Positions 38,019-56,236 of a stretch of 64,000 nt of DNA are shown here, in pieces. The DNA is taken from positions 224,001 to 288,000 of the forward strand of contig CBDBHR010000030.1 in the NCBI GenBank assembly GCA_965205865.1. Reading direction: 5' to 3'. The notes under the pieces are model-generated. The model saw nothing but the letters and a program-made list of their open reading frames with translations. It searched no databases and was not told the origin of the DNA. Each line of letters starts with the position of its first letter. Within the stretch, counting starts at the first letter, position 1. This DNA is from a bacterium (GTDB lineage Bacteria; SAR324; NAC60-12). The position numbers and the translations under genes were made by a program.

Positions 38019-38021
38019 TAA

Positions 38022-38406: not shown

Positions 38407-39903
38407 TTACATATCAGAATAGTTGCTTTTAAACTTTTCATAATTATTAAAATTTTGAATTGATTGAGGAGCTCCTTGAATTATTTTTTGTTCTATAAGA
38501 TTTGAAAGTTTAATTTTTTGTTTAAAATGTTTTATAAATCTGAACTCTATAACTAATACTCTTTGGTTTGTCATTTTTTTAATTTCCTCAAAAGAATATA
38601 CAGACCTCTTCCCTATAAGAGAAACAACTTCCAGTAATTCATTTGAACGAAATACTGATTCAATTATACCTATTGAAGTAATAGCTTGAACTGGAGTAGA
38701 TACATAAAAAAATACTAAATCATTACATTTTAATTGTTTTATTGGAGCATGACAAAGATAAACTTTTTTTATTGTGTTTCCAGGAATTTCATCCTCTTCT
38801 ATAGGTTCTATAGGAAGAGACATTTGCAAATTTTTTTCAGGAAAAAGAATGTGGTAATACCTCTCTTGTATTGGGATAATATATTTTTTAATATGACTCG
38901 AATCATCATAAAATGGAAAATATTTAATATGGTAGTCTAAACCTTTTATTTGAGGGGCACCCGGTTTAGTAAAATATTTTTGAAAAACTAATTCTGTTTC
39001 TTTTGTCCCTTTATCTTTTAAATCTGTTTCTGCAATCTCATCGAATCCAAAATCTTTTATTAAATCAATTAATATTTTGTGTTTCGGAAAAACTGTCATC
39101 CAACAAGACTTAAATTGATTTGTCACAGAATAGAAAAAAGCCTGTTTTAACATCAATTCACCCAATTTTTTCCCTCTATGAGATTCAGCCACTTTAAATG
39201 TAGCAAGTTTTAATGATTTTTGTGGGAGATTATAATTGATATAATCATCTTCTTTAGCTTCCTTGTAAATACATATAGATTCCAATTCATTTGATGAATT
39301 TTTAATTGTCCAAGCCTTTACTTGTTCTTCAGAACATTTTTCAAACCACTTTTGAAAATCTATGTAATCTTCTCTTAAGTTATCAAAGATTTTATCATCA
39401 CTATTTATACTATAAAGAAATTCTGTTTCAATTTTAGGAAGAGAAATTTCAATTTGTTTTGGAAATAGTCTTTCCAGAGTATTATTTGCTTGATTGATAG
39501 TAAGAACTTTATTTCTAATCGAAGCATTTTTAGCTCTTTGATGAATACCAATATCTTCCGTTATCAAAAAAGAAACAGTGTGTCTTTGTAAAGCGTATAG
39601 TAATTGACAATCAATTTTATCATTAGTGGACTTTATTAATCCAAATAAATTCTTTAAAGAATGTTCTTCAGCAATTGGAGGTCTTTCAAGAATTCTATAT
39701 TTCTTGATTTTACTTAAAACTTTTTCTTTTCTTTGTGGATTATTATCATTTTGTAAATCTTCTATTGTTAAAGGATGTATGCAAATAACAGCAAAATTTT
39801 CATTGCATAAGCTATGAAATTTTGTAAATGCATCTTTCAAAATTTCATTATCTTCCAATTGTATAAAAATATTGGTATCTATGAGAAAGAAAATTTTATC
39901 CAT
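38407..39903 (-). CDS. PIN-GNAT fusion with C-terminal PUA-like (EVE/ASCH) domain
   Basis: IDTNIFI PIN start; LKLATFKV..HRGKKLGELML GNAT motif; GNTIKKVYLC...APQSI C-terminus; very AT-rich. Confidence 0.75.
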   Translation of the reverse strand: MDKIFFLIDTNIFIQLEDNEILKDAFTKFHSLCNENFAVICIHPLTIEDLQNDNNPQRKEKVLSKIKKYRILERPPIAEEHSLKNLFGLIKSTNDKIDCQLLYALQRHTVSFLITEDIGIHQRAKNASIRNKVLTINQANNTLERLFPKQIEISLPKIETEFLYSINSDDKIFDNLREDYIDFQKWFEKCSEEQVKAWTIKNSSNELESICIYKEAKEDDYINYNLPQKSLKLATFKVAESHRGKKLGELMLKQAFFYSVTNQFKSCWMTVFPKHKILIDLIKDFGFDEIAETDLKDKGTKETELVFQKYFTKPGAPQIKGLDYHIKYFPFYDDSSHIKKYIIPIQERYYHILFPEKNLQMSLPIEPIEEDEIPGNTIKKVYLCHAPIKQLKCNDLVFFYVSTPVQAITSIGIIESVFRSNELLEVVSLIGKRSVYSFEEIKKMTNQRVLVIEFRFIKHFKQKIKLSNLIEQKIIQGAPQSIQNFNNYEKFKSNYSDM

Positions 39904-39971
39904 TAGAATTTGAAAGAATACACTAGAAAAATTCTAATTTTATAGCTATTATTTTTTTCTTTGTTGGACAA

Positions 39972-40376
39972 TTAAGCAACCAATTTATTAGAAATATATC
40001 TATAAGATTGTGGGGGATAACTAATTTCTCCAAGAATCTTTTTTAACTCAATTGGTTTTTTATATTTTACTGGATTTTCAAGATAAAGGGCAAAACCAAA
40101 ATCACGATTTTTAAAATATTTTTGAAATGAAATAAGATCTATCATGGTACAATGTTTTGAAATATCCCAAAGCATTTTTAAGGGCATTTTTTTTACTTCC
40201 TCCAGATCACATTCACCAATAACTTTTGAAATTGGAGAGCAAGCATAAATAAAAATCTTTCTTCTATCATCTTTTTTAAACAGAGGAAATTTCCTTCTAA
40301 GCTCAATAGTCTTCCACCCTTTTAATATGCCTGTAGCATACTCAGAATGAATACTAATCAATAAGTCTCTTTTCAT
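39972..40376 (-). CDS. ASCH-domain protein
   Basis: LISIH..YA..IL.G.KTIELRR...YACSP...PPQSYRY motifs. Confidence 0.85.
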   Translation of the reverse strand: MKRDLLISIHSEYATGILKGWKTIELRRKFPLFKKDDRRKIFIYACSPISKVIGECDLEEVKKMPLKMLWDISKHCTMIDLISFQKYFKNRDFGFALYLENPVKYKKPIELKKILGEISYPPQSYRYISNKLVA

Positions 40377-40424
40377 AATACACCTCCATGTGTTTCGATA
40401 TTACTACACCCTAACCCGGTAAAT

Positions 40425-40789
40425 GGGTCAGGCTTGCAAGTTTGCGAATTTAAGAAAACATTTTTAGGTTAAGTTCTTTTAACCGCTCTTGGAGATTTGT
40501 GGATTCTTTCAATCTTTCTCTCAATTTATGCACTCTACGACTGAAAGTAGAATCATCTCGATTGAGAGCATTTGCCACTTCCCGGATTGTTGCAGATTCC
40601 AATTGAAGACTTATAAAAGCGACGAGAGTCGCTGTCATCGAAATAAGTACGTTGCCCCCCATTACCTCGAAGTATCACATGATAAAGCGTACCAGGGTCG
40701 TACAAACGCGTTTTCCGAGACATCTTGGCAAATTGAAAAAGGTTAAAATTTAAAAAATACTCATTTTTGCAAACTTGCAAGTCTGACCC
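40425..40789 (-). mobile_element. RAYT-derived mini-element, copy 1
   Basis: Inverted ends GGGTCAGGCTTGCAAGTTTGC / GCAAACTTGCAAGTCTGACCC. Minus strand encodes MSRKTRLYDPGTLYHVILRGN (Y1/RAYT N-terminus) joined to IREVANALNRDDSTFSRRV (HTH C-terminus). Confidence 0.88.
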
Positions 40790-41147
40790 CTTTTCCACGA
40801 TGAAGCATATTTTATTAGAAGCAATTGGACTCTTAACCCAAGTACCGCTTTTTTTTAAATCGGCATTTTTTAAACAAAGACAGAAGAAAAGTGAAAAAAA
40901 TTGAATAGGCCGTCTATCCCCCAAGAAACCTATCAAAAAATAGGAAAATTCCTCATGAATTTCTATTTACAAATCAATTTTCAGATGCTACTGTCTTGAA
41001 AATTTTTGATTTTCCTAAATGATATCGTGGCAGAAAAACTAATCTGATCGGTAAAAAAGGCCCGGAAAGAGACAAACTGGGTGGGGAGGTAGTCGCAATA
41101 CCAAAGACGGGTGGATTGTTGAAGACCGAAAAAACAATAAAAATCCT

Positions 41148-41840
41148 ATGGATATTTCATTGCAGGAAATCGAAGAAATAGAAATGCTTACATTGCGATG
41201 GGTATTTCAATCAGTGCTTGATTTTGGCATGGAAGCTCATGAGATTTTTCATAAATCACCGGATAGTGTGAAAGACATTGCAGAAGATGTAACAAGGGAA
41301 TTACTTGACAGACTTTCAGGATTTAACGTTCAACAAAGAATTTATGGCACTGTAGATTATAAGAAGGCCAGATACGTTATCTTACCTGAGCAAACAGTCA
41401 GACAAGCGTTATTCATTGACTCAAAAGCAGAAAAAGAAAACCGTTCTGCCACAATCCAGATGTCTCAAACCTCCATGCGCATAAAACAGCGGAGGGCAGG
41501 AACTGAAATAAATGAAAAGGGAACCCTGCCGGAAATTTCTAAATATGGCGGAACAAATTTTTTAACGACTACATGTCTTGTACATTTTAAGTATGAAGAT
41601 GATGCCACTGGTGCGCATCATTTACGCAAAGTTACTATAGTTGCTATTCCCAATGGCCGATTACAGAACAGGTACAATCCAAGTGTTGATGATGGAATAT
41701 GGTTGGCAGGAAGGAATGCTCCTACACTACGGGAAGATTTCAGGGTAAGAGTCAGTTTCAGTAAATTAAAATCCAAGGCAGCATGGCGTGTGCAAGTGTT
41801 GACTTATAACGAAGAGTGCATAGGATCATGGCAATCATAG
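41148..41840 (+). CDS. Type II restriction endonuclease, SfiI/BglI-like
   Basis: VDYKKARY...ALFIDSKAEK...ATIQMSQ resembles the SfiI/BglI family (from memory); overlaps an N4-C methyltransferase gene. Confidence 0.7.
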   Translation: MDISLQEIEEIEMLTLRWVFQSVLDFGMEAHEIFHKSPDSVKDIAEDVTRELLDRLSGFNVQQRIYGTVDYKKARYVILPEQTVRQALFIDSKAEKENRSATIQMSQTSMRIKQRRAGTEINEKGTLPEISKYGGTNFLTTTCLVHFKYEDDATGAHHLRKVTIVAIPNGRLQNRYNPSVDDGIWLAGRNAPTLREDFRVRVSFSKLKSKAAWRVQVLTYNEECIGSWQS

Positions 41841-42838
41841 ATATTTCAAAAAAGCTGGAACCTAATGCCATCTATTGCGGAGATTCCAGAGTATTGCTCA
41901 AAGGAATTGAAGCGGAATCGATTGCTCTCAGTGTATGGTCGCCTCCCTACTATGTCGGAAAAAATTATGAGAAGGACTTAACTTTTAAGGCTTGGAAAGA
42001 ATTATTGAAAGAAGTCATTCATTCCCATTTTCCGATTATCAATCCAGGCGGGTTTCTGGTAATCAATATTGCTGACATTTTATGTTTTAAAGATGATTCA
42101 ATGCCGAGGATAATGGCAGAGAATGTGTCTCGAAGGAAAATAAATCTTTCAAGTGAAGAAATAGTAAAGGCCAAAGAGAAGAATCCTGATTGGAATAGAT
42201 ACCAACTGGCGGAGCACTTCAATTGCAGTGAACAAACCATTGACAGAAGACTTAATGGCAACAATATCAGGGGGGGGAAATATCAATCTCAGACAAGAGT
42301 CTTCTTGGTCGGCGGTTTTATTGAAGAAGCGGCACTGGAAGCAGGCTTTTATTTATATGATCGTCGCATATGGATCAAAGACGCAGCCTGGGAGAACTCG
42401 AGATGGCACACGATATCCTATCGCTCAGTAGATGAATCCGAATATATTTACATATTCTGGAAGCCAGGTATAACTAAAGTAGATCGTGCAAGATTGACTA
42501 AGCAGGAATGGATTAATTGGGGTTCGAGGGGAATCTGGGAGATTTCATCAGTTCGTAGTAATTCTGATCATGATTCTAAATTCCCGGTCGAGTTGCCAAG
42601 AAGATTGATCAAGCTCTTCACTGATCCTGGTGAAATTGTACTTGATTGTTTTATCGGTAGTGGAACCACCGCAGTTGCTGCCCTGAGTGAAACAAGACAA
42701 TATGTCGGCATAGACAAAGAGAGCAAATCGGTCAAAATTGCACGAAAAGCCGTGGCATCATTTAATGACCATAAAAAAGAATCAGTACAAATGGAGTTAA
42801 TGATCCGAGAAATTGAAGCGATTTATAATGTGGGATGA
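41828..42838 (+). CDS. Beta-class N4-cytosine DNA methyltransferase with internal HTH insert
   Basis: WSPPY ... FPVELP..LI ... VLDCFIGSGTT; insert NRYQLAEHFNCSEQTIDRRL. Confidence 0.88.
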   Translation: MAIIDISKKLEPNAIYCGDSRVLLKGIEAESIALSVWSPPYYVGKNYEKDLTFKAWKELLKEVIHSHFPIINPGGFLVINIADILCFKDDSMPRIMAENVSRRKINLSSEEIVKAKEKNPDWNRYQLAEHFNCSEQTIDRRLNGNNIRGGKYQSQTRVFLVGGFIEEAALEAGFYLYDRRIWIKDAAWENSRWHTISYRSVDESEYIYIFWKPGITKVDRARLTKQEWINWGSRGIWEISSVRSNSDHDSKFPVELPRRLIKLFTDPGEIVLDCFIGSGTTAVAALSETRQYVGIDKESKSVKIARKAVASFNDHKKESVQMELMIREIEAIYNVG

Positions 42839-42888
42839 TTGCCTAATTTGCACAAACACATGATAGAGGCAAAGCGCTAAAAAGCGAA

Positions 42889-43220
42889 TCACATCTCCTT
42901 GCGGGAGGAAATCACGCGGTCGATCAGACCGAACGCCAAGGTTTCTTCTGCAGTAAACCAATTGTCGCGGTCGATAGCCATTTTGATTTCTTGATAGGTT
43001 TTACCGGTGGCCTGGTAGTAGATATCAATGATGAAATCCCGGGTTTTGAGGATTTCATTGGCTTGGATTTCGAGATCCGTGGCCCGCCCTTGATAGCTGG
43101 TTAAAAGCGGTTGGTGGATCATGATTTTGGAAAGGGAGAAGGCGAAACGACGGCTTTTGTTGGCAGCCAGACTGAGAATCGAGCCCATGCTGGCGGCAAA
43201 TCCGGCAACAATCGTCGTGA
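42889..43220 (-). pseudogene. C-terminal half of a ClpP protease gene, cut by mini-element copy 2
   Basis: GFAASMGS, IMIHQP and DRDNWFTAEE..FGLID motifs; the 5' half is absent. Confidence 0.85.
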
Positions 43221-43221
43221 A

Positions 43222-43570
43222 GGGGTCAGGCTTGCAAGTTTGCAATTTAAGAAAACATTATTAGGTTGAGTTCTATTAACCGCTCTTGGAGATTTGTGGA
43301 TTCCTTCAATCTTTCTCTCAACTTATGCACTCCACGACTGATAGTAGAATCATCTCGATTGAGAGCATTTGCCACTTCCCGGATTGTTGCAGATTTCCAA
43401 TCGAAGACTTATAAAAGCGACGAGAGTCGCTGTCGTCGAAAAAATACGTTGGCCCCCATTGCCTCGAAGTATCACATGTTAAAGCGTGCAAGGGTCGTAC
43501 AAACGCGTTTTCCGAGACATCTTGGCAAATTGAAAAATACCCATTTTTGCAAACTTGCACAGCCTGACCC
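43222..43570 (-). mobile_element. RAYT-derived mini-element, copy 2
   Basis: Same ends and interior as 40425..40789. Confidence 0.88.
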
Positions 43571-43815
43571 GGTTTCTTACGTATTGATGGAATAGTGTTT
43601 TTACCGTTTCACTTCTTGAACTTCATCAAGTGATTTCTTTTCTTTGTGGTTGACATGGATTTCTCTATAAACTATTTTTTGAACAGACATCATCTTTGAA
43701 CAGACATCATCGGGAATAAGTTCAGGGTGTGATTTCGCAAAAAAGGGGAAATCTTGAACGCTGTAAAATCAATGGTTAGGTGGTACGACGCGTTTCACAG
43801 ATCTGAGTGAATGCA

Positions 43816-44195
43816 ATGTTCATTGCCTGCTAATAATCACATTTGCAATTGCCGTAATCGTTTCGTTCCTGGTTGTCATACTTTTCCGGAAATCCATTGC
43901 CACGATTCTAGGTCGGATCGTGGCCGAGAAGATCAGAGAGGTGTGGTAGCAGTATTTAACATTCGCGATCTACGTTGTGGGGGTGTCCGGCGGCGTACGG
44001 GTATGGGACCTGGAGAAGTACATCACCCCGAGGCCCGAGGAGGCCGAGGCCATAGTGCTCAACCCCGAGCGCTGGACGTTGGAGGTGTACCGCACTGTCA
44101 TCGGCACTTTGCAAAGCATTGCGTGGATGCTGCTTGCGTACGTGATCGTTCGGGGTTTGGAAGCAAAGCGTTCGAGGCCGCCTGCCGAGAAGTAG
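43816..44195 (+). pseudogene. Small membrane protein with frameshift and internal TAG
   Basis: Reconstructs to MFIA/LIITFAIAVIVSFLVV...IREVW*QYLTFAIYVVGVSGGVRVWDLEKYITP... Confidence 0.6.
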
Positions 44196-44279
44196 AATTG
44201 CCACCTGATCTGGGAGGTAGCGGTATTTCTCAGCCATGTCACCGCGTCAGCCTTTCGTCAGCAAGAAACGAGACCACTA

Positions 44280-45079
44280 ATGTCAGACCCAAAACACACT
44301 GCATACGAGCGTTTGAAGGAGCTTCACTCCGAAGCCGAATCGGCGACACACGCGTGGACAAAAATGGGAAATTTACTGAATGGCGTCAGAAAGTGCAGTC
44401 GGCACTGCGTCATTTGTTCGACGAGAATCGCCAACAACTCAAATCATTCAATTCCGTGCGTTATGTTCCACCTATGTTCTTAACGGGCATGCCGGACAGC
44501 GTGTTCCACAATTCATTCATAGGCGGTATGAAAACCGCTAGTGGAATCATACGCTCCGCAATTCAAGAATATGAGGATTACGAACAGCAAGCTGGTCACG
44601 ACGTCGATCACACTTCAGCCGACGGCAACTCTACCATCTCCCGTAAAGTTTTCGTCGTTCATGGTCACGACAACGAAATGAAGGAATCGGTCGCAAGATT
44701 CCTTGAGCGCCTCGACTTTGAAGCGGTCATTTTACACGAACAAGCAAGCGGCGGTGACACGATCATCGAGAAGTTTGAACGCAATGCGGACGTTAAATAT
44801 GCAGTCGTACTCTTGAGTCCGGATGACGTTGGCGCAGCAAAGGATAAATCCAATACACCGCAGCCAAGACCGCGCCAGAACGTAGTCTTTGAACTGGGCT
44901 ATTTCGTCGGGAAGCTTGGGCGGTCGCATGTCTGTCCACTGGTTCGTGAACCTCTGGAACGTCCGTCTGACATTCACGGTGTTGTCTACATCCCATTCGA
45001 CGAGGGGAATTGGAAGATTCATCTTGTCAAGGAACTCAAAAATCTTGGGTTCGAGGTCGACGCGAACAAGGCAGTCTAA
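44280..45079 (+). pseudogene. TIR-like nucleotide-binding domain protein (CAP12/Pycsar-type TIR), frameshifted
   Basis: VFVVHGHD, TIIEKFE, LLSPDD, RQNVVFELGYF and PSDIHG motifs. The N-terminus from ATG 44280 shifts frame near 44350. Confidence 0.75.
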
Positions 45080-45168
45080 TATTGAATCGGTCAACCGGAG
45101 CGGTGATTGAGTACGGAATCAAAATTGTCAGATCGCTGGCCACCGCTAGGTTAGCTCAGGTGTTTTGC
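45074..45168 (+). other. Degenerate integron attC-like site
   Basis: GTCTAAT overlaps the stop codon; AACCGGAGCGGTG pairs with CACCGCTAGGTT with a bulge; ends GTTTTGC just before the next RBS/ATG. Confidence 0.6.
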
Positions 45169-45183
45169 GGAAGGGAGATAGAA

Positions 45184-46455
45184 ATGAAGAAAGTTATTTT
45201 CAACATATTTCTCGTCATCTGCGTTGCGGGAGTCGCTTTCGCACAGTCGGTCGAAAGCGAGATTCGGGAGTTTGCCGCACGGGAGTATCCCAACGACTCC
45301 CGGATGCGGCAGTATGTTTACAAAGAGCAGATTGCGGCACACCGGTATATGGTTACCGCCAAAGATGCAGACGTTAAGCGAATTGCCATTCGAGAATACC
45401 CGAAAGACTACGCAATGCAGAAATATGCCTATTATGAACAACTCTCAGCAAAACGATACATGACCACCGTGAGAAATCGCGAGGTCAAACGAATTGCTCT
45501 GCGGGAGTATCCGAACGATTATTCCATGCAGAAGTATATATATGATGGGCAGTTGTCAGCAAAACGGTACATGGAAACTGTTTCTGATCAAGACGTGAAG
45601 AGGATGGCGATGCACGAATATCCGAATGATTATTCTATGCAGAAATACATCTATGACAATCAGCTATCGGCAAAGCTGTATATGTCCTCCGTTAGAGATC
45701 ACGAGATCAAATCAATTGCCATGCGGGAGTATCCGAAGGATTATTCGATGCAGAAGTATACATACGATGAGCAATTGTCAGCAAAACGATACATGGAAAC
45801 TGTTTCTGACCAAGACGTAAAGAGGATCGCGTTGCACGAATATCCGAATGACTATTCTATGCAGAAATACACCTATGACACTCAACTCACCTATGATACT
45901 CAACTCGTGGCCGACTTCGAGGCTTGGGTCACTGGAGATCGCTTGTATCGCAGAACATGCCCCAACAGCAAGTGTGGTGTTGTTGGGATTTTAATGTTCA
46001 GGGAAAAGGCAACAGTTTACGAAGAGAAAAACGGTTGGGCCAGAGTGTCGATGTATTACAATGCGGCTTGCCGAAACGGCCTGAGTGAGTACGTTGATTC
46101 AGGCAACGCGGCTTGCACTGAGAGCAACGGCATTGTCGACAGTCGCATTGCTGAATGGGTATCCATTAAGTACCTCAGCAAGACGCGTCCCCCCGATCCG
46201 AGCGCAGGTGCTACAGGAGATTACGCACTTGTTAGTGGCTCAGACGACTACCGCAAATACAAAGATATATTTGCCCGGACAGCCTCCAAGCTCATCGCTT
46301 CTGGCCAGTGCACTGCACGAGACTTTAAAGAAATAGGCGGCTGGCTGAAATCCATGAACTTCAAGGACAGTCCCGTGTACTTTACCTACTGTGGTGGGAT
46401 GATCGTTCAGAACCGGTTGTATCTCAATGCAGCCACCGGGGAAGTATTCAAATAG
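45184..46455 (+). CDS. Secreted protein with six ~38-aa repeats and an SH3-like/Cys-rich C-terminus
   Basis: Signal peptide MKKVIF...VAFA; repeats A.REYP.DYSMQKY.YD.QLSAKRYM; VYEEKNGWARVS SH3b-like motif. Confidence 0.8.
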   Translation: MKKVIFNIFLVICVAGVAFAQSVESEIREFAAREYPNDSRMRQYVYKEQIAAHRYMVTAKDADVKRIAIREYPKDYAMQKYAYYEQLSAKRYMTTVRNREVKRIALREYPNDYSMQKYIYDGQLSAKRYMETVSDQDVKRMAMHEYPNDYSMQKYIYDNQLSAKLYMSSVRDHEIKSIAMREYPKDYSMQKYTYDEQLSAKRYMETVSDQDVKRIALHEYPNDYSMQKYTYDTQLTYDTQLVADFEAWVTGDRLYRRTCPNSKCGVVGILMFREKATVYEEKNGWARVSMYYNAACRNGLSEYVDSGNAACTESNGIVDSRIAEWVSIKYLSKTRPPDPSAGATGDYALVSGSDDYRKYKDIFARTASKLIASGQCTARDFKEIGGWLKSMNFKDSPVYFTYCGGMIVQNRLYLNAATGEVFK

Positions 46456-46508
46456 ACACATTTGGCTTTGCTTAGCAAATATCATTCTAAAGTGAACGAT
46501 GCTGTGAA

Positions 46509-46818
46509 GGGGTCAGGCTTGCAAGTTTGCGAATTTAAGAAAACATTTTTAGGTTGAGTTCTTTTAACCGCTCTTGGAGATTTGTGGATTCCTTCAATCT
46601 TTCTCTCAACTAATGCACTCCACGACTGAAAGTAGAATCATCTCGATTGAGAGCATTTGCCACTTCCCGGATTGTTGCAGATTTCCAATCGAAGACTGAT
46701 AAAAGCGACGAGAGTCGCTGTCATAGAAAAAATACGTTGGCCCCCATTGCCTGAAGTATCACATGTTAAAGCGTGCAAGGGTCGTACAAACACGTTTTCC
46801 GAGACATCTTGGCAAATT
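46509..46818 (-). mobile_element. RAYT-derived mini-element, copy 3 (right end missing)
   Basis: Left end and interior conserved; runs directly into the next copy at GGCAAATT/GTGAA. Confidence 0.85.
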
Positions 46819-46823
46819 GTGAA

Positions 46824-47828
46824 GGGGTCAGGCTGTGCGCCAGGAAAGCTGGCAAGAAATAGAGAGTGAAAGTCTCTTACTCGGTAAGGCAGTAACGACC
46901 CGCCGAGTCCCCGAGTCATGAGTGGTTATTCGCAAGGATAGGCGCTAAGCGTTGACAGGGGAGAACATAGGCTCGGTATTGAGCTCCGAAATCATAGTTT
47001 CAGGCGCTGACCTTGTGGTCTGGTGGGGAAGGCAATATCGACCGAAGGCGTTAGCGCGAGTCTCGGTCGAGCCTGGCGGAGTCAAAGACCCGGCGCATGT
47101 GTGGAAGTTTCTTGATCGGAACCTGGGAGATCCTGAAGACGACTGTCAACATTCCATTGGTAGTCGGATCGGGAAAATTAATAAATAACCCCGATATCTA
47201 CGTCTTCAGGAAGTCGGACAAGTTCGTAGTAGCGATGAAGCGGCGAACAATGAGATCATTTGCAGAGAGTAACAATGCAAAGGAAATCAACGGAGCCTGT
47301 GGAGCAAAGGGACTTGGCTGAGAGGAATTCTGCTTGCCCTCCTGTGTTCGTAACTCAGAGGCCGGTAAAATCAGAGAGCGGTTTAAGCAGGGTGCGCCAA
47401 ACGGCAACGTTTGAGCGTCTGACTCGAAGCAGGAGCCGGATGCGTTAGCAGCGCAGGTCCGGATCTGTACCGGAGGAATGACGAAAGGTGGCTGGAAACC
47501 ACTATAAGTCAGTTCTTTACGGTGACTGCAAGTTTGCAAATTTAAGAAAACATTTTTAGTTGGAGTTCTTTTAATCGCTCTTGGACATTTGTGGATTCCT
47601 TCAATCTTTCTCTCAACTTATTCACGCCACGACTGATAGTAGAATCATCTCGATTGAGAGCATTTGCCACTTCCCGGATTTTTGCAGATTTCCAATCAAA
47701 GACTGATAAAAACGACGAGAGTCGCTGCCATCGAAAAAAATATGTTGGCCCCCATTGCCTCGAAGTATTGCATGATAAAGCGTACCAGGGTCGTACAAAC
47801 GCGTTTTCCGAGACATCTTGGCAAATTG
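46824..47828 (-). mobile_element. RAYT-derived mini-element, copy 4, split by a group II intron
   Basis: GGGGTCAGGCT at 46824..46834 resumes as TGCAAGTTTGC at 47527. Confidence 0.88.
46835..47526 (+). mobile_element. Group II intron (family A, copy 2), ORF-less
   Basis: Starts GTGCG and ends GGTGAC; domain V GAGCCGGATGCGTTAGCAGCGCAGGTCCGGATC. Removing it restores the element terminal repeat exactly. Confidence 0.92.
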
Positions 47829-47832
47829 TGAC

Positions 47833-48199
47833 GGGGGCAGGCTTGCAAGTTTGCGAATTTAGGAAAACATTTTTAGGTTGAGTTCTTTTAACCGCTCTTG
47901 GAGATTTGTGGATTCCTTCAATCTTTCTCTCAAATTATACACTCCACGACTGAAAGTAGAATCATCTCGCTTGAGAGCATTTGCCTCTTCCCGGATTTTT
48001 GCGGATTTCCAATCAAAGACTAATAAAAACAACGAGAGTCGCTGTCATCGAAAAAAATACGATGGCCCCCATTGCCTCGAAGTATCACATTAAAAAGCGT
48101 ACCAGGGCCGTACAAACGCGTTTTCCGAGACATCTTGGCAAATTGAAAAAGGTTAAAATTTAAAGAATACCCATTTTTTCAAACTTGCAAGCCTGACCC
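47833..48199 (-). mobile_element. RAYT-derived mini-element, copy 5
   Basis: Both ends present (left end variant GGGGGCAGGCTTGC). Confidence 0.88.
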
Positions 48200-48243
48200 G
48201 TTTCTTGAAAATCTGATCCTTTTTTAGAATCGCTCAATTTAGG

Positions 48244-48267
48244 TATAAATCAGTTCTTTACGGTGAC
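48244..48267 (+). mobile_element. 3'-terminal remnant of a family A group II intron
   Basis: TATAAATCAGTTCTTTACGGTGAC followed by TGCA, as at 47527. Confidence 0.7.
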
Positions 48268-48497
48268 TGCATACTTGCGTATTGGTATTTTTATCGTTTC
48301 ATAGGTGAAGAGTCTCCCTCAGAATTCTCTCGGTTTTTATATTTCTTCAGGAAGCCTTAGAGGCCTTTATCCCTCCTGTTTCCCATGCAGGACTCTCATC
48401 GTGGAGCCAATCAGAGGGCCTCCGTCCTTTTCTTGGAACCACCGATTCCAACATCCTTTTCCATGCAATTATTTAATACAAATATGCAAGCCTGACC
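48268..48497. mobile_element. Second mini-element subfamily (ends ...CTTGCGTATTGGTATT / AATACAAATATGCAAGCCTGACC)
   Basis: Inverted ends related to 51251..51450; different interior. Confidence 0.65.
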
Positions 48498-48770
48498 GTA
48501 TGCGGTAACGACCGCTCTTCTAGTGGGTTGAAGTCCCACCAAAGTAATTATCCGTTCGCTTTGTAGGCAACGGGAGCAGCGTGGGAGTAATCTGGGGTTG
48601 TAAGTTCCCGACGCCAAAACAACGGGCCGTAACGAAAGTGAACCTAGATGTAGCCTCGAAACTTGAGTCGAAAGCGCCGACCCTGTGGTCAGAAGGGAAA
48701 GGCTGTTATCTCACGAATTAGACAACGGATTTCTTCGTGAGGGTTTTCCGGGGTAGCAGGGATGGCACCG
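48498..48770 (+). mobile_element. Group II intron (family B), 5' domain I fragment only
   Basis: Begins GTATGCGG; GTGGGTTGAAGTCCCAC hairpin, CCGTAACGAAAGTGAA and GCCGAC...GAAAGGC domain I-like motifs; truncated. Confidence 0.7.
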
Positions 48771-49095
48771 CAAAGAAGAAACGCAAAAAAGCTTCCTCGC
48801 CCGACTGATCAACCCCTTCCATCAGTAGGAATCTCTTCCTCAAAGGTGCCCCCTCAGGGGGCACTTTCTCTCTCGCAATCAGTGTTCCAAAGATTGGTTC
48901 AAATAACGTCTCGTTGTCAAATCGAACGTTATTCTGAGCCGCCATTTTTGCCCCTTGCAGCGAAAATGGTCGGACTCCAGAAATTTGTTATGGAAATTAT
49001 TGAAAATACGCTGTATCTAATAATCCAAATTAGGTGGTTGCAAAAAGGAACCTCTGATGGTAATTTAAAAACCACACACTTATAAAGGAGTTCAC

Positions 49096-49323
49096 ATGGC
49101 AACCGCGGTAAAACTATCAGATGATCTTTATGAAAAAGCAAAGATTCAATCAAAGGTTTTTAAAAGGTCTATTGCTGGTCAAATTGAATACTGGGCAAAA
49201 ATAGGACAAATGATTGAAGAAAATCCCGACCTCCCACTTCCGTTTATTCAAGACATTCTGGTCGGAAGAGAACAGATAAAATCAGGTCAAGGCGCTCCGT
49301 ATGTATTTGGAGAGGGTGAATGA
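49096..49323 (+). CDS. ParD-like antitoxin
   Basis: MATAVKLSDDL...RSIAGQIEYWAKIG..IEENPDLP family signature; AAGGAG RBS. Confidence 0.85.
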   Translation: MATAVKLSDDLYEKAKIQSKVFKRSIAGQIEYWAKIGQMIEENPDLPLPFIQDILVGREQIKSGQGAPYVFGEGE

Positions 49324-49610
49324 CCCGGATTACAGAAATAATCCAGTCACCTATTTTTGAAAAACAGAAAAAGAAACTGCGCAAACCGCAGATTAAAGAC
49401 CTGGATAAGGCTGTAAAGTCTATCTCCAATGATCCTACAATCGGAGATATGAAAGTAGGAGATCTGAGGGGTATCCAAGTTTATAAGTACGAATCAAAAA
49501 ATCAGCAGATCCTTTTAGCCTATGAAGTAATTGATTCAACTTTATTTTTATATACGTTTGGATCACATGAAAACTTTTATCGAGATCTGAAAAAATACCT
49601 TCAACGATAA
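49320..49610 (+). CDS. RelE/ParE-family toxin
   Basis: PTIGDMKVGDLRGIQVYK...LLAY...GSHENFYRDLK; ATGA overlap with the antitoxin. Confidence 0.85.
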   Translation: MTRITEIIQSPIFEKQKKKLRKPQIKDLDKAVKSISNDPTIGDMKVGDLRGIQVYKYESKNQQILLAYEVIDSTLFLYTFGSHENFYRDLKKYLQR

Positions 49611-49633
49611 TTCTTCGCCTCCATTCAACTCTA

Positions 49634-49762
49634 TAATAACGTTGAAGTCAGTCGCTTTCAACCCAACCATGGACTGTGATTGAAACGAGTGATTCCATCA
49701 AACACAGAAAAAAATTAGGAGTCGCTAATGAGTGGAAGTCGGTCTGCACTGACTGGTTGGAA
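49634..49762 (-). other. Integron attC-like site
   Basis: Minus strand reads TTCCAAC-CAGTCAG-TGCAGACCGAC...GCGACTGAC-TTCAAC-GTTATTA: R''/L''...L'/R' architecture, 129 bp. Confidence 0.75.
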
Positions 49763-49876
49763 AATCCTGCCCAAAACTCATCGATACTTTTTCTTTTTCT
49801 CCTCGACGACTCCGTTTATTCGGTATTCCGTGTTCTTGCTCCGCTCAATGCCCTCATAATTCTGGTTTTCATGAAA

Positions 49877-50241
49877 GGGTCAGGCTTGCAAGTTTGCGAA
49901 TTTAAGAAAACGTTTTTAGGTTGAATTCTTTTAACCGCTCTTGGAGATTTGAGAATTCCTTCAATCTTTCTCTCAACTTATGCGTGCCACGACTGATAGT
50001 AGAATCATCTCGATTGAGAGCATTTGCCACTTCCCGGATTGTTGCGGATTTCCAATCGAAGACTGATAAAAGCGAAGAGAGTCGCTGTCATCGAAAAAAA
50101 TACGTTGGCCTCCATTGCCTCGAAGTATCACATGATAAAGCGTACCAGGGTCGTACAAACGCGTTTTCCGAGACATCTTGGCAAATTGAAAAAGGTTAAA
50201 ATTTAAAAAATACTCTTTTTTGCAAACTTGCAAGCCTGACC
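49877..50241 (-). mobile_element. RAYT-derived mini-element, copy 6
   Basis: Both ends and interior conserved. Confidence 0.88.
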
Positions 50242-50336
50242 ACGTTTGACCCCGTTTCAAGCGCTGTCTATCAGGATGAAAAACCTTTCGCGGCCGAGCC
50301 GATCTTTTCCCCATTAAAAACCATGAGTCATAGGCG

Positions 50337-50908
50337 ATGAGACTGAAAGCAACTGAAGAAAAAATTCATTCAACAGAAGCCTTTTGTGAAATTACAAGAT
50401 ACCTACTCTCTAACCCTCTTTCTCCTGTAGTTGCCGGAAAGGATGCTCGGGAACAGTTAGAAAATCATAGACTTCAAAAGAATATAGTAGCGCATATGCT
50501 TTGCGCGATAATAGTAGAGAACACGATAAAATACTCTGGGAAATGGAACACAATAAAGAATGTGAGTACTCACACAATATTCATAAAATCTACGGAGAAC
50601 TTTCCAATTCAACAAGAGCAGAATTGAAGAGCACGTATGACAAGCAAACAGCGGTATTCGCAGCAATAGAGGGAAGCATAAATGGGAAAAAAGTAAAACT
50701 TGGTGATATTGTCCAATTGGCCTCACTCGAACAAGCATTACAATCCAATGAGATTACAATGAGAAATTTCAAATATGACAACAAATTTCGGGGCAAAACC
50801 AGCGTGATTGCAAACGCTATATGGGACGCAAAGACGATTTGGATTCTACCATCCGGGCACAAGCCATTCGCTGTGTCCTTGTTCGAATACATGAAGGACC
50901 GTGTCTAA
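50337..50908 (+). pseudogene. Hypothetical gene, probably frameshifted
   Basis: Overlapping ORFs 50337..50627 and 50501..50908; no motif recognised. Confidence 0.4.
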
Positions 50909-50998
50909 ATTCATATTTTCCACAGACACGATCATGAGAAATTTGAGGATGAAAGTCTAAAAAGGAACTTGAAAGTCATGAATAACTAGGTTTTCTTT

Positions 50999-51250
50999 TC
51001 ATAGAGGATCAACCGGTCGAGTAAATTTTTTTGCTTTCGTCTGTTTGTGGCGTCCTCGTTTCTTATTTTGAGGTTTTGGAGGATAGAGCTTGAGTACTTC
51101 TTGGCTGATGTCGTGGTAGCGTTGCCGGAAGCGATCGAGTCGGGTTCGACTCAAAGCAGATTGTCCTTTGGCTTGGTCTACTTGCTCTCTGATCTGCAAG
51201 AATAACTGATTCATTTCCTGAACCCAAAGAGCCTTTTCTTGTTCATAAAT
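50999..51250 (-). pseudogene. IS66-family transposase fragment
   Basis: W..EM.QL...RY......PP....KKRGR.KQTKA resembles the IS66 transposase mid-region. Confidence 0.6.
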
Positions 51251-51450
51251 GGGGACAGACTTGCGTATTGGTATTAAGAATTTGTCTTTAGTGCATGAGT
51301 TTTTCATCCATCTGAGGATTGACTCTCATCTGGGTTTGACATGGCAATGCTTTGTCTGTTCAGCAAGGAAGATCTCAGAAAGGAACCAAGTCTCAATCCT
51401 TTTTCTGAGTGCCATTTCACAAATTAAATACCAATACGCAAGCCCGACCC
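51251..51450. mobile_element. Second mini-element subfamily copy
   Basis: GGGGACAGACTTGCGTATTGGTATT ... AATACCAATACGCAAGCCCGACCC inverted ends. Confidence 0.75.
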
Positions 51451-51453
51451 ATT

Positions 51454-52726
51454 TTAACCGACCTTGGGAATATCGCTCCACCCTGCCAGGTATCGCGGGG
51501 ATTTGTGAGACTGTTTCATTTTCCATGATTTGTCGTAAACCCCGCATGAGGCGACTCTCAGTGTCATGGGACCTTCTTTTTGATTGATGCGATCCATGGC
51601 CTTCATGAGGGCGACATCCTTTTCCGAATCACCTTTCTCGATGAATGATAGTTGAATGGATGATTTATCCCGGATGTCGGACAACTTCACTAGAGCTTTT
51701 TTATATTCGTACCCCTCCCTGTAGAGCCGTTCGAGCACGGAGAGAGCATATTTGATCACTTTCCTCGTATCTGCCGTCTGCGAGAGAGATCGTTTTGAAT
51801 CCACCGCATAATACTGGGGGGTATTTTTAAAGGGGTTGGTCCTGATCCAGACTTCGACCGAGGAGCATACCGAACTTTGTTTTCTTAATTTTTCACAGGC
51901 AACCGAGGCGTAATTGGAAACCGCCTCACGCAAGCTCTCGAGGTCATAGACGGCATCTCCGAAGGTACGGCTACTGAGAATTTCTTTTTTCTTTTGCACT
52001 TCGAGTTCGAGTTCGAAGCAAGGATTTCCTCGTAATTCTTCCTGTATTTTCCTGCCGACAATGGAAGTTTTTTTGCGGACCAGGCCTTCATTCTTGAAAT
52101 CCCTGAAATCCCTTGCCGTTCTGATCCGGAGTTTTCTGAATCTACGCCCAATTTGCCGTCCGACCCCCCAAACCTCCTCGACGTCCAGTTGTTGGAGGAT
52201 TTTATCTTGTTGCCGCGTATTCATAACTGAAACCACTCCTCCGCTGGAGTCGTGTTTTTTAGCATAAGCATTGGCTGCTTTCGCCAGCACCTTGGTGGGG
52301 CCGATACCGATGCTCACCGGAATTCCCGTATCGCGCTCCACGATTTTTTTGATTTCCATCCCGTATTCATGGAGCCCCCACTTTTCGTACCCGCCACAGG
52401 TTCAAAAATGCTTCATCCACCGAGTAAATTTCCAGTTCCGGCGTAAACCGGCTGAGGGTGATCATCACTCGATCGCTCATATTGATATATAAACTGAAAT
52501 TAGAGCTGAAGACGGCTACCTTGTTTTTTTCGCAAATATCCCGGTATTTAAAAAAAGGAGCGCCCATCGGAATGCCGAGTTTTTTCAGTTCCACCGTTCT
52601 GGAGACGAAGCAGCCGTCGTTGTTGGAAAGGACGCCGACAGGGAGACCGAGAAGATCAGGTCTGAACAATCGCTCGCAGGCGCAGTAGAATGCGTTGCAG
52701 TCCACCAGGGCAAATACTTTATTCAT
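51454..52726 (-). pseudogene. umuC: Y-family DNA polymerase V subunit UmuC, frameshifted
   Basis: ALVDCNAFY, VLSNNDGC, YSVDEAF and W.MKQ..KSPRY motifs; frameshift near 52395. Confidence 0.88.
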
Positions 52727-53077
52727 TCAGATTTCTCGCACGATCGCTACCACGACACCCCAAACTCTTGCTTCCAATTCGTTTGAGACATGTATATCTC
52801 GATAGTCTTGGTTGTCGGATCTCAGTATGATGCCTTTTCCAAAGCGAAATATTCGTTTGCAGAGCAGTTCTCCCTCGAATGCGACAACTGCCACCCGGCC
52901 GTCAACTCTGTCGATACTGCGGTCGACCACTAAAATGTCGTTTTCGAAAATGAGAGGCGCCATTGTGTTGCAGGTAGCCTTGAAGAAGAAAGTGGACGTC
53001 TTGTTTTTGACAAAACGCTCGTCGAGCGATTGATATTTTTCAATGAAATCATCATGAATACCAAACAATCCCATCAT
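52727..53077 (-). CDS. umuD: UmuD-like S24 peptidase
   Basis: TFFFKA...DILVVDRS...GELLCKR...VWGVV; the usual GDSM motif reads CNTM. Confidence 0.8.
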   Translation of the reverse strand: MMGLFGIHDDFIEKYQSLDERFVKNKTSTFFFKATCNTMAPLIFENDILVVDRSIDRVDGRVAVVAFEGELLCKRIFRFGKGIILRSDNQDYRDIHVSNELEARVWGVVVAIVREI

Positions 53078-53261
53078 CGCCTCTTGACGGTATCTATTTT
53101 AAGTGAAAACATATTATAATACCCATGAAATTTATTTTAAGTTTATCATGAAATCAATTGAAAAATGATAGACGGCCATCTTGATTTTCTCTTTTTAAAA
53201 AAAGGGGTGATCCGTTTTTGCGTACTCTGTGATTCCAGTAGATGAATAAACGGGGGAATTC

Positions 53262-53996
53262 ATGTGTTTTTCCGTAGAAGTGGACAAGGACATTAAAAAA
53301 CTGGCGGCGCGCTTCCATGCTTTGATCGACCGGCATGCTTTTGACGGGTTTTCGTCCATGCAAAAGCTGGAGGCGGAATTGGATCCGGGAAGGTTGAAAG
53401 GACTGCTGGGTCTGAAACGAAAGTCCCGTTCTCTTTTTTTCAAAGAAAGCGCTGAGGATTCTCGCATTTACCCGGGATATTTCGCACCCGTCATCGTCTG
53501 GGAAAATGGCGTGAGACAGATCCGCCCGATGCGATATCGAGTGAGGCCCCGTGGATCGGCAGAAGAAATTCCTTCCAAATTCAACGTTTTCAATGCACGG
53601 CTCGATTCACTGGAAAAGCGACGAACCTGGAGAGGCTTATTTATGAGGAAACACGCTTTGTTTCCATTTTACCGGTTTTATGAGTGGCTCACCAATGAAA
53701 GAGGAAAGAAGCGGCTTGTTGAATTCAGTCCGCGTGGTTGTGATCGAATGTGGGCTCCCGCCCTTTATGACACCTGGGTATCGAGGGACAACGAAATGAG
53801 CTTTCACTCATTTGCGCTGATCACCGATGTTCCTCCCCCGGAAATCGAGGAGCAGGGACACGACCGCTGCCCCATTTTTCTTCGGGAAACTCTGATAGAT
53901 GACTGGCTTCGACCCGAAGGAAAGTCTGCAGCGCACTATTATGAATTACTGACAAACAAAGAGATCGTCTATTACAGCCACAAACCACTTGATTAA
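53262..53996 (+). CDS. SOS response-associated peptidase (SRAP/YedK family)
   Basis: N-terminal MC, FNARLD, FYEW and HDRCPIFL motifs. Confidence 0.88.
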   Translation: MCFSVEVDKDIKKLAARFHALIDRHAFDGFSSMQKLEAELDPGRLKGLLGLKRKSRSLFFKESAEDSRIYPGYFAPVIVWENGVRQIRPMRYRVRPRGSAEEIPSKFNVFNARLDSLEKRRTWRGLFMRKHALFPFYRFYEWLTNERGKKRLVEFSPRGCDRMWAPALYDTWVSRDNEMSFHSFALITDVPPPEIEEQGHDRCPIFLRETLIDDWLRPEGKSAAHYYELLTNKEIVYYSHKPLD

Positions 53997-54050
53997 CCTG
54001 AGTTCGACATAAATCTTCAATAATATGAGTATCCTAGTGTATATGTCATC

Positions 54051-54120
54051 CTCCCGGATTGTTGCAGATTTCCAATCGAAGACTGATAAAAGCGACGAGA
54101 GTCGCTGTCATCGAAAAAAA
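54051..54120 (-). mobile_element. Internal fragment of the RAYT-derived mini-element
   Basis: CCCGGATTGTTGCAGATTTCCAATCGAAGACTGATAAAAGCGACGAGAGTCGCTGTCATCG matches the element interior. Confidence 0.85.
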
Positions 54121-54833: not shown

Positions 54834-54863
54834 CATTAGAGGTTTAGAACAGGCAGGTATGTT

Positions 54864-55202
54864 ATGAAGGACTTGATGAGTTATAAAGGGTATTATGGTT
54901 CTGCGCATTATAGTGATGCGGATCGTGTATTCTTTGGGAAGATTGAGTATATCAGGAGCTTAGTCAATTATGAGGGAACGGATGTAGACAGTTTGAAGCA
55001 ATCTTTTGAAGATGTTGTTGATGATTATTTGGAGCTTTGTCAAAAAGAAGGGATTGAACCTGAACAATCCTTCAGAGGAAGTTTTAATATACGTACCGGA
55101 AGTGAACTTCACCGACAAGCAGCTTTATATGCTAAAGAAAAAGGGACGAATCTCAATAAAGTTGTTACGGAGGCGCTTGAGCAGTATTTATCGAGTGTGT
55201 AA
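54864..55202 (+). CDS. hicB: HicB-family antitoxin (upstream hicA reduced to its last codons)
   Basis: MSYKGYYGS...FFGKI...VDDYL...FRGSFNIR..SELH motifs. Preceded by ...LEQAGML* overlapping at ATGA. Confidence 0.85.
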   Translation: MKDLMSYKGYYGSAHYSDADRVFFGKIEYIRSLVNYEGTDVDSLKQSFEDVVDDYLELCQKEGIEPEQSFRGSFNIRTGSELHRQAALYAKEKGTNLNKVVTEALEQYLSSV

Positions 55203-55360
55203 AGCACTTAACAACCCGCTCCAACAGAGCCTCCTCTAAGAAATCTGCCAAAAAATCAAAAAATCCTCTCGTCTATTGCTCTGATACATCTATTTCAAAG
55301 GGTAGGGTCTTCTGCAAATTTTTGATTTTCCTACTATGCAGACCTTGGAATTGCGGGAGT

Positions 55361-55391
55361 TTTAAAGCAGACCAGATTGGTCTGCTTTAAA
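55361..55391 (-). terminator. Terminator hairpin downstream of csp
   Basis: TTTAAAGCAGACCA-GAT-TGGTCTGCTTTAAA perfect inverted repeat. Confidence 0.8.
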
Positions 55392-55406
55392 ATTTTGCAG
55401 ATTTTT

Positions 55407-55601
55407 TCATTTCGCCAATTGAACATTGACGGCACATGGGCCCTTTCGTCCTTCTCCAACTTCGAAGGTCACTTTTTCACCTTCTGCCAAATAACCACCG
55501 CGTACCTCGGAATGATGCACGAATAGATCTTGGTCATTTTCCTGTTGAATGAAGCCATAGCCTTTCTGCGTGTTAAACCATTTGACGATTCCTTCTTTCA
55601 T
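55407..55601 (-). CDS. Cold-shock protein
   Basis: GIVKWFN..KGYGFI and DLFVHHS motifs. Confidence 0.95.
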   Translation of the reverse strand: MKEGIVKWFNTQKGYGFIQQENDQDLFVHHSEVRGGYLAEGEKVTFEVGEGRKGPCAVNVQLAK

Positions 55602-55774
55602 TGCTTATCCTTATATTATATTTTAGGTTGTGTTTAATGTTATTCAATAACTGAATTCGGATTTTTCATCTATTTTCACTTCAATTGAATGAAGTGAAAA
55701 GTGTAGGAGGAGAAACACTTTTTTAACTTGGCATGAAAGAATGAAAAATCGGATGGAACTCCTTTTTAACGCTG

Positions 55775-55851
<77 letters not shown>

Positions 55852-55861
55852 GTACTCGAAA

Positions 55862-55937
55862 TGGTGGGCGCTACAAGGATCGAACTTGTGACCTACGGCT
55901 TGTAAGGCCGCCGCTCTCCCAGCTGAGCTAAGCGCCC
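55862..55937 (-). tRNA. tRNA-Val (TAC)
   Basis: GGGCGCT acceptor stem, CTTACAA anticodon loop, TTCGA T-loop, CCA end. Confidence 0.97.
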
Positions 55938-56043
55938 TACCCAAGAAGAGAAATAGACAAACCCTTCTTATACAGCATAATAGAAAGGAATGCAAGTTTT
56001 TTCTTATTTGCTGTTCATTCATAAAAAAAGAGAGATTTTTGTA

Positions 56044-56197
56044 TTTTAGATTGAATTAGTACTAATTAAGTGCTATTTGTATAAAATGATCATTGAGAAT
56101 AAAGATCGCATTAAAGATTTTTTAGATTGAATTAGTACTAATTAAGTGCTATTTGTATAAAATGATCATTGAGAATAAAGATCGCATTAAAGATTTT
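56044..56197. repeat. 76-bp tandem duplication in the isc promoter region
   Basis: TTTTAGATTGAATTAGTACT...CATTAAAGATTTT occurs twice. Confidence 0.93.
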
Positions 56198-56236
56198 GCT
56201 CTTATACGGGGAATTAACTTTCAGCAAAAAGGTCCT

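Follow-up and report, generated by a model that had tools for sequence, protein, structure and literature searches.

The DNA stretch analysed here (the window) comprises 64,000 nucleotides, positions 224,001 to 288,000 of the forward strand of contig C30 in the bacterial assembly GCA_965205865.1 (G000; 4.74 Mb in 30 contigs, which carry C-numbers below). In it, an element of 365-376 bp is present in six copies and as one fragment of 68 bp, all on the plus strand and distributed over a strain-variable defence island. The copies can be described as relics of a TIRtron, a transposable element with a Y1/HUH transposase, and the array that they form is probably a by-product of transposition and a set of breakpoints, not a purpose-built capture device.

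The copies were defined by repeat finding, alignment and BLAST of the first copy, A1, against the whole 4.74-Mb assembly. The 21-mer GGGTCAGGCTTGCAAGTTTGC occurs eight times in the window with up to three mismatches and was not found in 100 shuffles. Five occurrences are left ends on the plus strand (40425, 43223, 46510, 47834 and 49877), the other three right ends on the minus strand (40769, 48179 and 50222), which confirms that the same-strand repeats reported in a preliminary description of this DNA are real. The inverted ends are approximately 21-26 bp long, and the homology between copies runs about 5 nt past the 21-mer on each side.

A1 (40420-40795) is a complete mini-element of the family called A here; it has both inverted ends, and its homology to the other copies covers 40422-40793. 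A2 (43218-43576) is complete apart from a 17-bp internal gap, and its left tip adjoins a 332-bp clpP fragment. A3 (46505-46819) has no right end and stops at element position 311; it is directly followed by the left tip of A4 (46820-46834, 15 nt, TGAAGGGGTCAGGCT). An ORF-less group II intron of 692 nt (46835-47526, plus strand; Rfam RF02005, 173 bits) splits this tip from the A4 body (47527-47828) and lies inside the left inverted repeat, where it was inserted between GGCT and TGCAAG. The A4 body also ends at element position 311 and A5 (47829-48204), a complete copy, comes directly after it. A3, A4 and A5 thus form a head-to-tail tandem, and both joints read ...GGCAAATTG followed by TGA(A/C)GGGG. 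Nested insertion combined with unequal crossing-over would fit these joints, but the leftover right end expected from it is absent. A6 (49872-50247) is complete with its right tip briefly repeated afterwards (...TGACCACGTTTGACCCCGTTTC), and A7 (54052-54119) is the 68-bp internal fragment, covering element positions 156-222. The window copies are 88-97% alike and each has unique flanks. The earlier count of six copies and a fragment stands, except that the copy listed separately at 46824 is the 15-nt tip of A4, whose body starts at 47527; inverted ends of about 21 bp are present as described, although only four of the six copies (A1, A2, A5 and A6) have kept both.

Genes were named with Pfam and PADLOC, for which 29 open reading frames (ORFs) between 34.9 and 57.9 kb were scanned. 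The modules follow each other in the order PDC-M11, type II restriction-modification (RM), TIR PDC-S35, ParDE and umuDC, parted by direct-oriented copies. The first of them, a GNAT/EVE and ASCH gene pair (38407-40376, minus strand), is the candidate defence system PDC-M11A/B (E values 8e-134 and 8e-32) and has a GC content of 0.29 compared to 0.47 for the window. The preliminary description had read a PIN domain here and had placed the module between copies; the 498-aa ORF matches the Pfam families GNAT and EVE, and the pair lies to the left of A1. The type II RM module (41148-42838, plus strand) encodes an SfiI-like endonuclease and an N4/N6 methylase and has a counterpart with 90% identity in the sister species G001. 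The Pfam match of the endonuclease (profile positions 87-292 of 292) would suggest a missing N-terminus, the PADLOC model is covered at 7-241 of 269, and the gene is not taken to be truncated. The 3′ part of an accessory clpP (42889-43220, minus strand; profile positions 70-181) follows and ends at the A2 left tip. A gene for a TIR-domain protein, the defence candidate PDC-S35, and a 481-aa ORF without clear family assignment occupy 43811-46455 on the plus strand; a ParD-like/ParE-like toxin-antitoxin pair (Pfam) is located at 49096-49610, also on the plus strand. At 51454-53996 Pfam identifies a umuC broken into two ORFs together with umuD, both on the minus strand, followed by SRAP on the plus strand. 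The GC content is not uniform among the blocks, as had been noted before, and ranges from 0.29 to 0.57.

The parent element and its transposase

The genome contains one full-length family-A copy with the same ends as the mini-elements (C4:25433-26463, 1031 bp). On the minus strand it encodes a Y1 plus helix-turn-helix (HTH) protein of approximately 320 aa that starts with MSRKPRLYYPGALYHV; the frame is broken once, at a run of six T where the minis have seven (one T is missing). This copy bears out the proposed origin of the units from a RAYT-like Y1/HUH element and is the match for the intact RAYT with the same ends that had been suggested as a check, found at full length but with a frameshift in the T tract. 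The minis correspond to the full-length element minus 666 bp, with position 184 joined to position 850, which leaves 365 bp of 1031 bp.

The deletion joint is common to all minis. It removes the catalytic core, as had been described, and it shifts the HTH-coding part out of the reading frame of the first 37 codons. The reported fusion of the N-terminus to the HTH is thus out of frame, and it is decayed: none of the 19 family-A copies examined has an open fusion frame, seven have lost the start and copies carry stops. Because the joint is out of frame and the copies contain stops, the minis are to be regarded as non-coding, MITE-like (miniature inverted-repeat transposable element) relics of a TIRtron. 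Pairwise identities within family A are 87-99% and the tree is star-like. The sequences assign all minis to one deletion event. One common joint is found at about 20 loci, and therefore the minis were moved by a transposase acting in trans, in agreement with the earlier suggestion.

A second family, B, has 72-74% DNA identity to family A and comprises five near-identical intact copies at C29:722037-746005. Its ends read GGGTCAGGCTTGAAAGTTTGA, and the 21-nt end differs from that of family A at two positions. The intact 312-aa ORF matches Y1_Tnp (PF01797, 5.8e-14), and its C-terminal tail (residues 223-286) matches Bac_DnaA_C (PF08299, 5e-08) and also DnaA models. Both histidines of the HUH motif (H60 and H62) and the tyrosine Y119 of RYIHLNP are invariant across 16 aligned relatives. 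Approximately 6100 database proteins from many phyla match the family-B protein at E ≤ 1e-20. The element ends read GGGGTCAGGCTTGCAAGTTTGC and its complement. No convincing hairpins were found at the termini, where 70-nt tips fold only weakly (−1 to −7 kcal/mol).

RAYT-like genes located between terminal inverted repeats with the consensus GGGGWSAS have been named TIRtrons and their enzymes TIRYT (Di Nocera, De Gregorio and Rocco, 2013; PMC3733652), and the end motif GGGGTCAG fits this consensus. TIRYT correspond to TnpA-Y1 subclass 2.1 (Quentin et al., 2018; PMC6006769) and to RAYT group 1 (Bertels et al., 2017; PMC5581495); members of subclass 2.1 carry Bac_DnaA_C or HTH_23/HTH_28 tails and are without REP hairpins, according to these papers. 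By domain make-up and type of ends, the element is thus assigned to the TIRtrons: it is about 1.03 kb long, encodes a TIRYT-type Y1/HUH transposase with a DnaA-C-like HTH and has terminal inverted repeats of about 26 bp that start with GGGGTCAG. The class itself is therefore already named but little studied. Compared with the TIRtrons in the available portions of these papers, the approximately 310-aa RAYT-like Y1/HUH enzyme, the Bac_DnaA_C-type HTH and GGGGWSAS terminal inverted repeats instead of REP hairpins are the same; different here are the multiple copies of the whole element, five of them intact and near-identical, the one internal-deletion derivative at about 20 loci and the strictly co-oriented arrays between defence modules. 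In the same portions of PMC3733652 and PMC6006769, TIRYT are presented with no assay of movement, end binding or cutting. The helper transposase is likely to be encoded by the family-A copy, if the frameshift in the T run is reversible or an error, or by the five intact family-B copies.

A classical RAYT with REP or REPIN sequences was rejected as an identification: the ends form no hairpins, the gene is present in five near-identical copies and the family-B protein scores 71.9 with the NCBIfam RayT model NF047646, under the cut-off of 80. REP/REPIN-RAYT systems, reportedly described by Nunvar in 2010 and by Bertels and Rainey in 2011, share with the element a related Y1/HUH enzyme and short, mostly intergenic non-autonomous repeats that are presumed to be moved in trans. 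They differ in that the repeats here lack GTAG-tagged hairpins and are 365-bp gene relics versus palindromes of 20-40 nt, and in that the transposase is multi-copy.

Two side observations concern the element family. For many metagenome protein clusters of TIRYT the longest contig is only about 1.0-1.5 kb, which is the length of the element and is expected of multi-copy repeats that break assemblies. Just past the stop codon of the intact accessory clpP, at C28:52530-52746, lies a micro-derivative of about 110 bp. The part from the right tip through codon four, together with a TGACCCCC tip, makes up this derivative, which is tandemly repeated (2.2 units of 140 bp); in G001 the site is empty.

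Clustering, orientation and breakpoints at the tips

Family A occupies about 21 loci on six contigs and is not confined to the island. Twenty-two pieces were listed; the single C4 copy contributes two of them, its arms. Nine neighbour pairs at a distance of up to 10 kb were listed, one of them formed by these two arms and hence left out; the eight real pairs are all co-oriented, and random placement gave a mean of 0.91 pairs and a maximum of four. The five copies of family B (six pieces listed, one being the family-A copy on C4) form four pairs, all co-oriented, compared to a random mean of 0.04. The excess of neighbour pairs is thus approximately 10-fold for family A and 100-fold for family B. 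Two control families behaved differently: 33 copies of a DDE-type insertion sequence, IS1, form four pairs within 10 kb (random mean 2.2), one of them co-oriented, and 71 copies of a 64-bp repeat form 12 pairs (random mean 9.5), six of them co-oriented. For the group II intron (38 copies) ten pairs were found (random mean 2.8), nine of which are co-oriented. Clustering and strict local co-orientation are a property of the TIRtron families, plus the introns homing into their repeats, and are not general for mobile DNA in this genome. The conclusion of the preliminary description that the copies are not random insertions therefore stands, as they are clustered and locally co-oriented far beyond both control families.

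As a side observation, the intron uses the target described for A4 also in the right repeats of the family-B copies B2 and B3 on C29 and of the copy at C30:798928. Outside the window it was found at C29:725560-726248, at about C29:732458 and at C30:799265-799705, and enters left and right repeats of both element families.

Forty related genomes were searched at the DNA level, and a match was obtained only in the sole genome of the same genus, the closed 4.26-Mb genome of the sister species G001, which is the only close relative available for comparison. G001 has a single intact TIRYT gene (89% identity to family B) along with many clustered minis that stem from a different internal deletion (positions 1-234/319 plus 783-1051). 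In the seven clusters examined all 20 adjacent pairs share their orientation; this count leaves out hits of 25-29 nt restricted to the symmetric repeat, which match both ways. In other phyla, extra end-bearing fragments of the same element were found at 24 of 80 TIRYT loci (flanks of up to 10 kb per side). This agrees with the statement in PMC3733652 that TIRYT repeats occur as singles, dimers and groups, where some members are also said to be duplicated within a genome. A metagenome scan with the 21-mer yielded ten stretches (nine loci) that share only the repeat tip (23-43 nt) or a TIRYT gene that is 66-77% alike; none is syntenic with G000, and they are of no use for comparing strains.

The tips of the elements coincide with breakpoints. 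The clpP piece stops exactly at the A2 left tip, the break lying right after GTGA when compared to an intact paralogue that is 96% identical (C28:51115-51707) and whose locus has its orthologue at G001:4.126 Mb; the remainder of clpP does not follow beyond A2. A copy of IS1 is cut at the left tip of B4; 29 other IS1 copies match up to this point, and the five that were inspected run on. In G001 an IS1 copy is cut at a different point beside a family-B left tip, and in G000 IS2 is cut at the right tip of B5. Three patterns were used to look next to other copies for the lost parts of clpP, IS1 and IS2, and none of them matched. No direct repeats flank the listed copies and none were seen at the three exact joints (clpP, IS1 and IS2), so no target-site duplication is evident. 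Family A has a conserved left flank, RTGA(A/G), and the tandem and IS1 joints suggest that these bases travel with the element.

Two RM modules are found next to elements in both species. A methyltransferase plus XcyI module (C29:75898-78358 and G001:1113661-1116132, 91% identical) abuts a repeat tip with its right end in both genomes, where synteny stops. The tip is the right one of a family-A mini in G000 and the left one of a family-B mini in G001, and the two joints are about 10 nt apart. In each species two co-oriented elements enclose the SfiI-like RM module; the loci are not syntenic, and relative to the elements the module points opposite ways in the two genomes. Its homology ends 100-600 bp short of the tips at three of the four ends; the same holds for the left ends of the XcyI module. 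As a separate observation, a stretch of 3.3 kb is 95.7% identical between G001:2809729-2813055 and C25:134941-138267 of G000 while ordinary orthologous DNA is about 80% identical, which suggests a recent transfer or a mobile segment; in G001 it ends at the very left tip of a mini, 2-3 nt beyond a stop codon.

Strains were compared by placing short k-mer contigs from four public runs (X3, X5, X6 and X7) on the window; of eight runs listed, one carries the label sponge metagenome. Contigs of all four runs extend from unique blocks into element tips. The PDC-M11 block (38601-40403) has depth only in X3, apparently the source run, plus traces, and is uncovered in X5-X7. In X5 a family-A right tip lies beside the RM block without PDC-M11. 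One contig of X6 comes from the RM block and leaves the window at 40795, the A1 right tip, into 2.4 kb of element-free DNA; a plain deletion reaching to the left of 38000 may also explain this contig. In X6 and X7 a family-A right tip is joined to 51422/51452 at the end of umuC, skipping 50248-51421, and a family-A left tip follows after 53996. The cargo is thus not the same in different strains and species, in line with the earlier proposal, and breakpoints lie at element tips.

At several ends the outermost 11-14 nt are tandemly repeated. Such stutters consist of two to three repeats of, for example, CTGACCCCGAT, which was found at five right ends (C10:101169, C16:13821, C30:451356, C4:25433 and window 50242-50270), and of GTGAAGGGGTCA at one left end (C29:78336). 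They look like possible scars of nicking and resealing.

Origin of the array

We consider it somewhat better than an even chance that the copies were first spread by strand-specific transposition over short distances and that deletions anchored at tips and recombination between copies then shaped the array. The identity of the element, the single origin of the minis by one ancestral internal deletion of 666 bp that took out the catalytic core, the amplification of the 365-bp mini in trans to about 20 loci, the clustering and co-orientation and the breakpoints at tips are shown; the steps that follow are inferred. The Y1/HUH transposase would act on one strand and reinsert the element nearby on the same strand, as in the single-strand "peel and paste" model for IS608 and ISDra2 (PMC6006769). 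Such local reinsertion would yield co-oriented clusters with a spacing of 0.3-7 kb in a dispensable defence island next to tRNA genes. Cleavage at a tip and joining to a nearby site might then lead to one-sided deletions, and RecA-type exchange between direct 365-bp copies, which are 90-97% alike, might delete or swap whole modules and could also take up foreign DNA with the same repeats. The outcome would be tips that coincide with module boundaries, truncated genes and strain-specific indels.

Several observations weigh against this explanation. The search for empty sites among the paralogous flanks of 23 copies returned one-sided matches only, and no transposition event, circle joint or whole-copy pair of empty and filled sites was seen. 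Within one array, copies resemble each other only slightly more than they resemble copies outside it, which is weak support for local hopping, and only two near-neighbour pairs (267223/270510 and 794465/798928) are also nearest in sequence. The intron family is locally co-oriented as well, so that co-orientation is not unique to the TIRtron. Orientation of the clusters does not match the replichores defined by dnaA in either genome, and therefore a replication-fork model needs later inversions or another cause; GC skew around the copies and along large contigs is weak and noisy and gives no usable replication direction. The identical A3-A4 and A4-A5 joints between copies that are only 92-93% alike are not accounted for. 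Deletion and hopping alone leave unexplained why, at non-syntenic loci, elements enclose the same two RM modules in the two genomes. The strain-contig joints rest on sides of 22-34 nt and are weak singly.

The preliminary description had seen in the repeats a gene-capture array. According to this idea the ends are attachment sites at which a trans-acting HUH transposase integrates and excises defence modules, comparable to integron cassettes or IS26 units. Single defence modules are indeed parted by direct-oriented copies, the genome has five intact transposase genes and strain-contig indels end exactly at right tips. The two RM modules shared between non-syntenic loci, and the XcyI module abutting a tip in both species although element family and orientation differ there, point in the same direction. 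However, no dedicated capture reaction at the ends is evident. Apart from the 332-bp clpP piece no block of the island has a second copy in G000, and the homology of shared modules halts short of the tips as described above. In G001 umuDC-SRAP lies between orthologues of DNA that is contiguous on C25, with no element within the 9 kb examined. The C29 array has four copies, and its blocks of 6 and 16 kb contain several modules. Cargo and elements are oriented differently to each other in the two species, the copies in the array are old and decayed, and no circle joint was seen. We therefore regard a dedicated capture array as unlikely.

A related proposal goes further: TIRtron ends could be portable recombination sites, with the Y1/HUH enzyme and homologous exchange shuttling anti-phage modules into, out of and among co-oriented arrays. 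Extra end-bearing fragments at 24 of 80 TIRYT loci show that the pattern recurs in other phyla. We consider this proposal unlikely. If it were true, such arrays would do for defence genes, by means of a single-strand nuclease, what integrons or IS26 arrays do, and if the ends were true attachment sites they would provide a new route of gene-cassette exchange. Like IS26 arrays and integron cassettes, which are variable in content from strain to strain, the array uses direct repeats of one short unit to part unrelated accessory modules. It differs in that the 29 ORFs of the 34.9-57.9 kb region include no IS26-type DDE transposase and in that the units are decayed. An integron was rejected, as no integrase family is present among the same ORFs (attC sites were not searched for). 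An IS26-type array was rejected as well: the copies are direct, but the enzyme is Y1/HUH and not DDE, and no unit circle was seen.

A passive pile-up, in which the island tolerates any insertion, selection keeps those between modules and the mechanism of the element is irrelevant, appears quite unlikely. It would be consistent with the additional repeats of the island, which comprise group II introns and no fewer than four further families, with the presence of broken genes (the split umuC and the clpP fragment) and with the presumption that insertions inside intact modules would be selected against. Against it, IS1 and the 64-bp repeat show neither the close-neighbour excess nor the co-orientation (1/4 and 6/12) of families A and B, and the same contrast is found in G001.

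Co-orientation could also result from a strand bias over whole replichores only, the active strand being always on the lagging-strand template and neighbours being trivially co-oriented. The enzyme belongs to the Y1/HUH superfamily, in which IS608 and ISDra2 target the lagging-strand template (PMC6006769), and orientation shows a weak trend with local GC skew. On C30, where dnaA is located at 1.009 Mb, the orientation of elements runs −, −, + (the array), −, +, +, − and thus changes four times. In G001, whose genome is closed, both orientations occur among the clusters to each side of dnaA (1.79 Mb), and clustering would be left unexplained. We judge such a bias very unlikely as the sole cause.

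The assembly has 30 contigs, 3.7% contamination and a 20.7-kb stretch that occurs twice at 99.5% identity, but the copies differ by 3-12% and have unique flanks, the unique blocks are represented in contigs from four public runs, which continue into the tips, and the closed sister-species genome has the same kind of arrays, so that copies mis-joined or duplicated by the assembler, a concern raised in the preliminary description, can for practical purposes be dismissed.

Strand-specific behaviour as in the IS200/IS605 family is the best model of co-orientation at hand. IS608 and ISDra2 share with the TIRtron the catalytic superfamily, the lack of an obvious target duplication and a conserved short left flank (RTGA here). 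They have subterminal hairpins and neither terminal inverted repeats nor an HTH tail, whereas here terminal inverted repeats and an HTH are present and hairpins are absent; furthermore, their orientation bias is replichore-wide, which is not so here. With MITEs the minis have in common that they are short, non-coding, multi-copy internal-deletion derivatives of an autonomous element, with terminal inverted repeats and a transposase supplied in trans. Classical MITEs are DDE-derived and have target-site duplications, which are not evident here, and strict co-orientation of neighbours is not known from them.

Five intact autonomous copies together with a derivative of single origin that shows action in trans amount to a natural experiment. 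Local co-orientation, kilobase spacing, tip-anchored deletions and tip stutters form a signature that any mechanism must explain. The relics mark seams of defence-island rearrangement between strains and species, which bears on the shuffling of anti-phage modules in symbionts rich in mobile DNA. Compared with the available portions of the published TIRYT accounts, the insertion-sequence-like burst of intact copies, the MITE-like derivative of single origin, the co-orientation measured with controls and the tip-anchored rearrangement of a defence island are new.

Flanks and other repeats

To the left of the array a type IIG (MmeI-like) RM gene was identified with Pfam and PADLOC (34929-37775, plus strand). 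A second group II intron, represented by a match to domains 1-4, is located at 48530-48763 on the plus strand (Rfam RF02005, 73.5 bits). The 1.2-kb stretch at 50248-51421 contains two unnamed ORFs and two other repeat families. The right flank (54838-64000) is conserved and contains hicB, two tRNA genes (55778-55937) and iscR/iscS-like genes.

The 20.7-kb stretch mentioned above comprises C28:1-21937 and C30:278838-300848 and reaches the end of C28. The two versions diverge at window position 54838, just upstream of hicB, and different islands lie beyond this point. The bin may contain a second strain haplotype here, or the stretch may have been duplicated recently.

At least five more short repeat families are present in the island, with 3 to more than 70 copies genome-wide. 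They were located at 37783-38021, 40799-41017, 48203-48246, 50960-51247 and 53992-54056, and the genome is unusually rich in small repeats.

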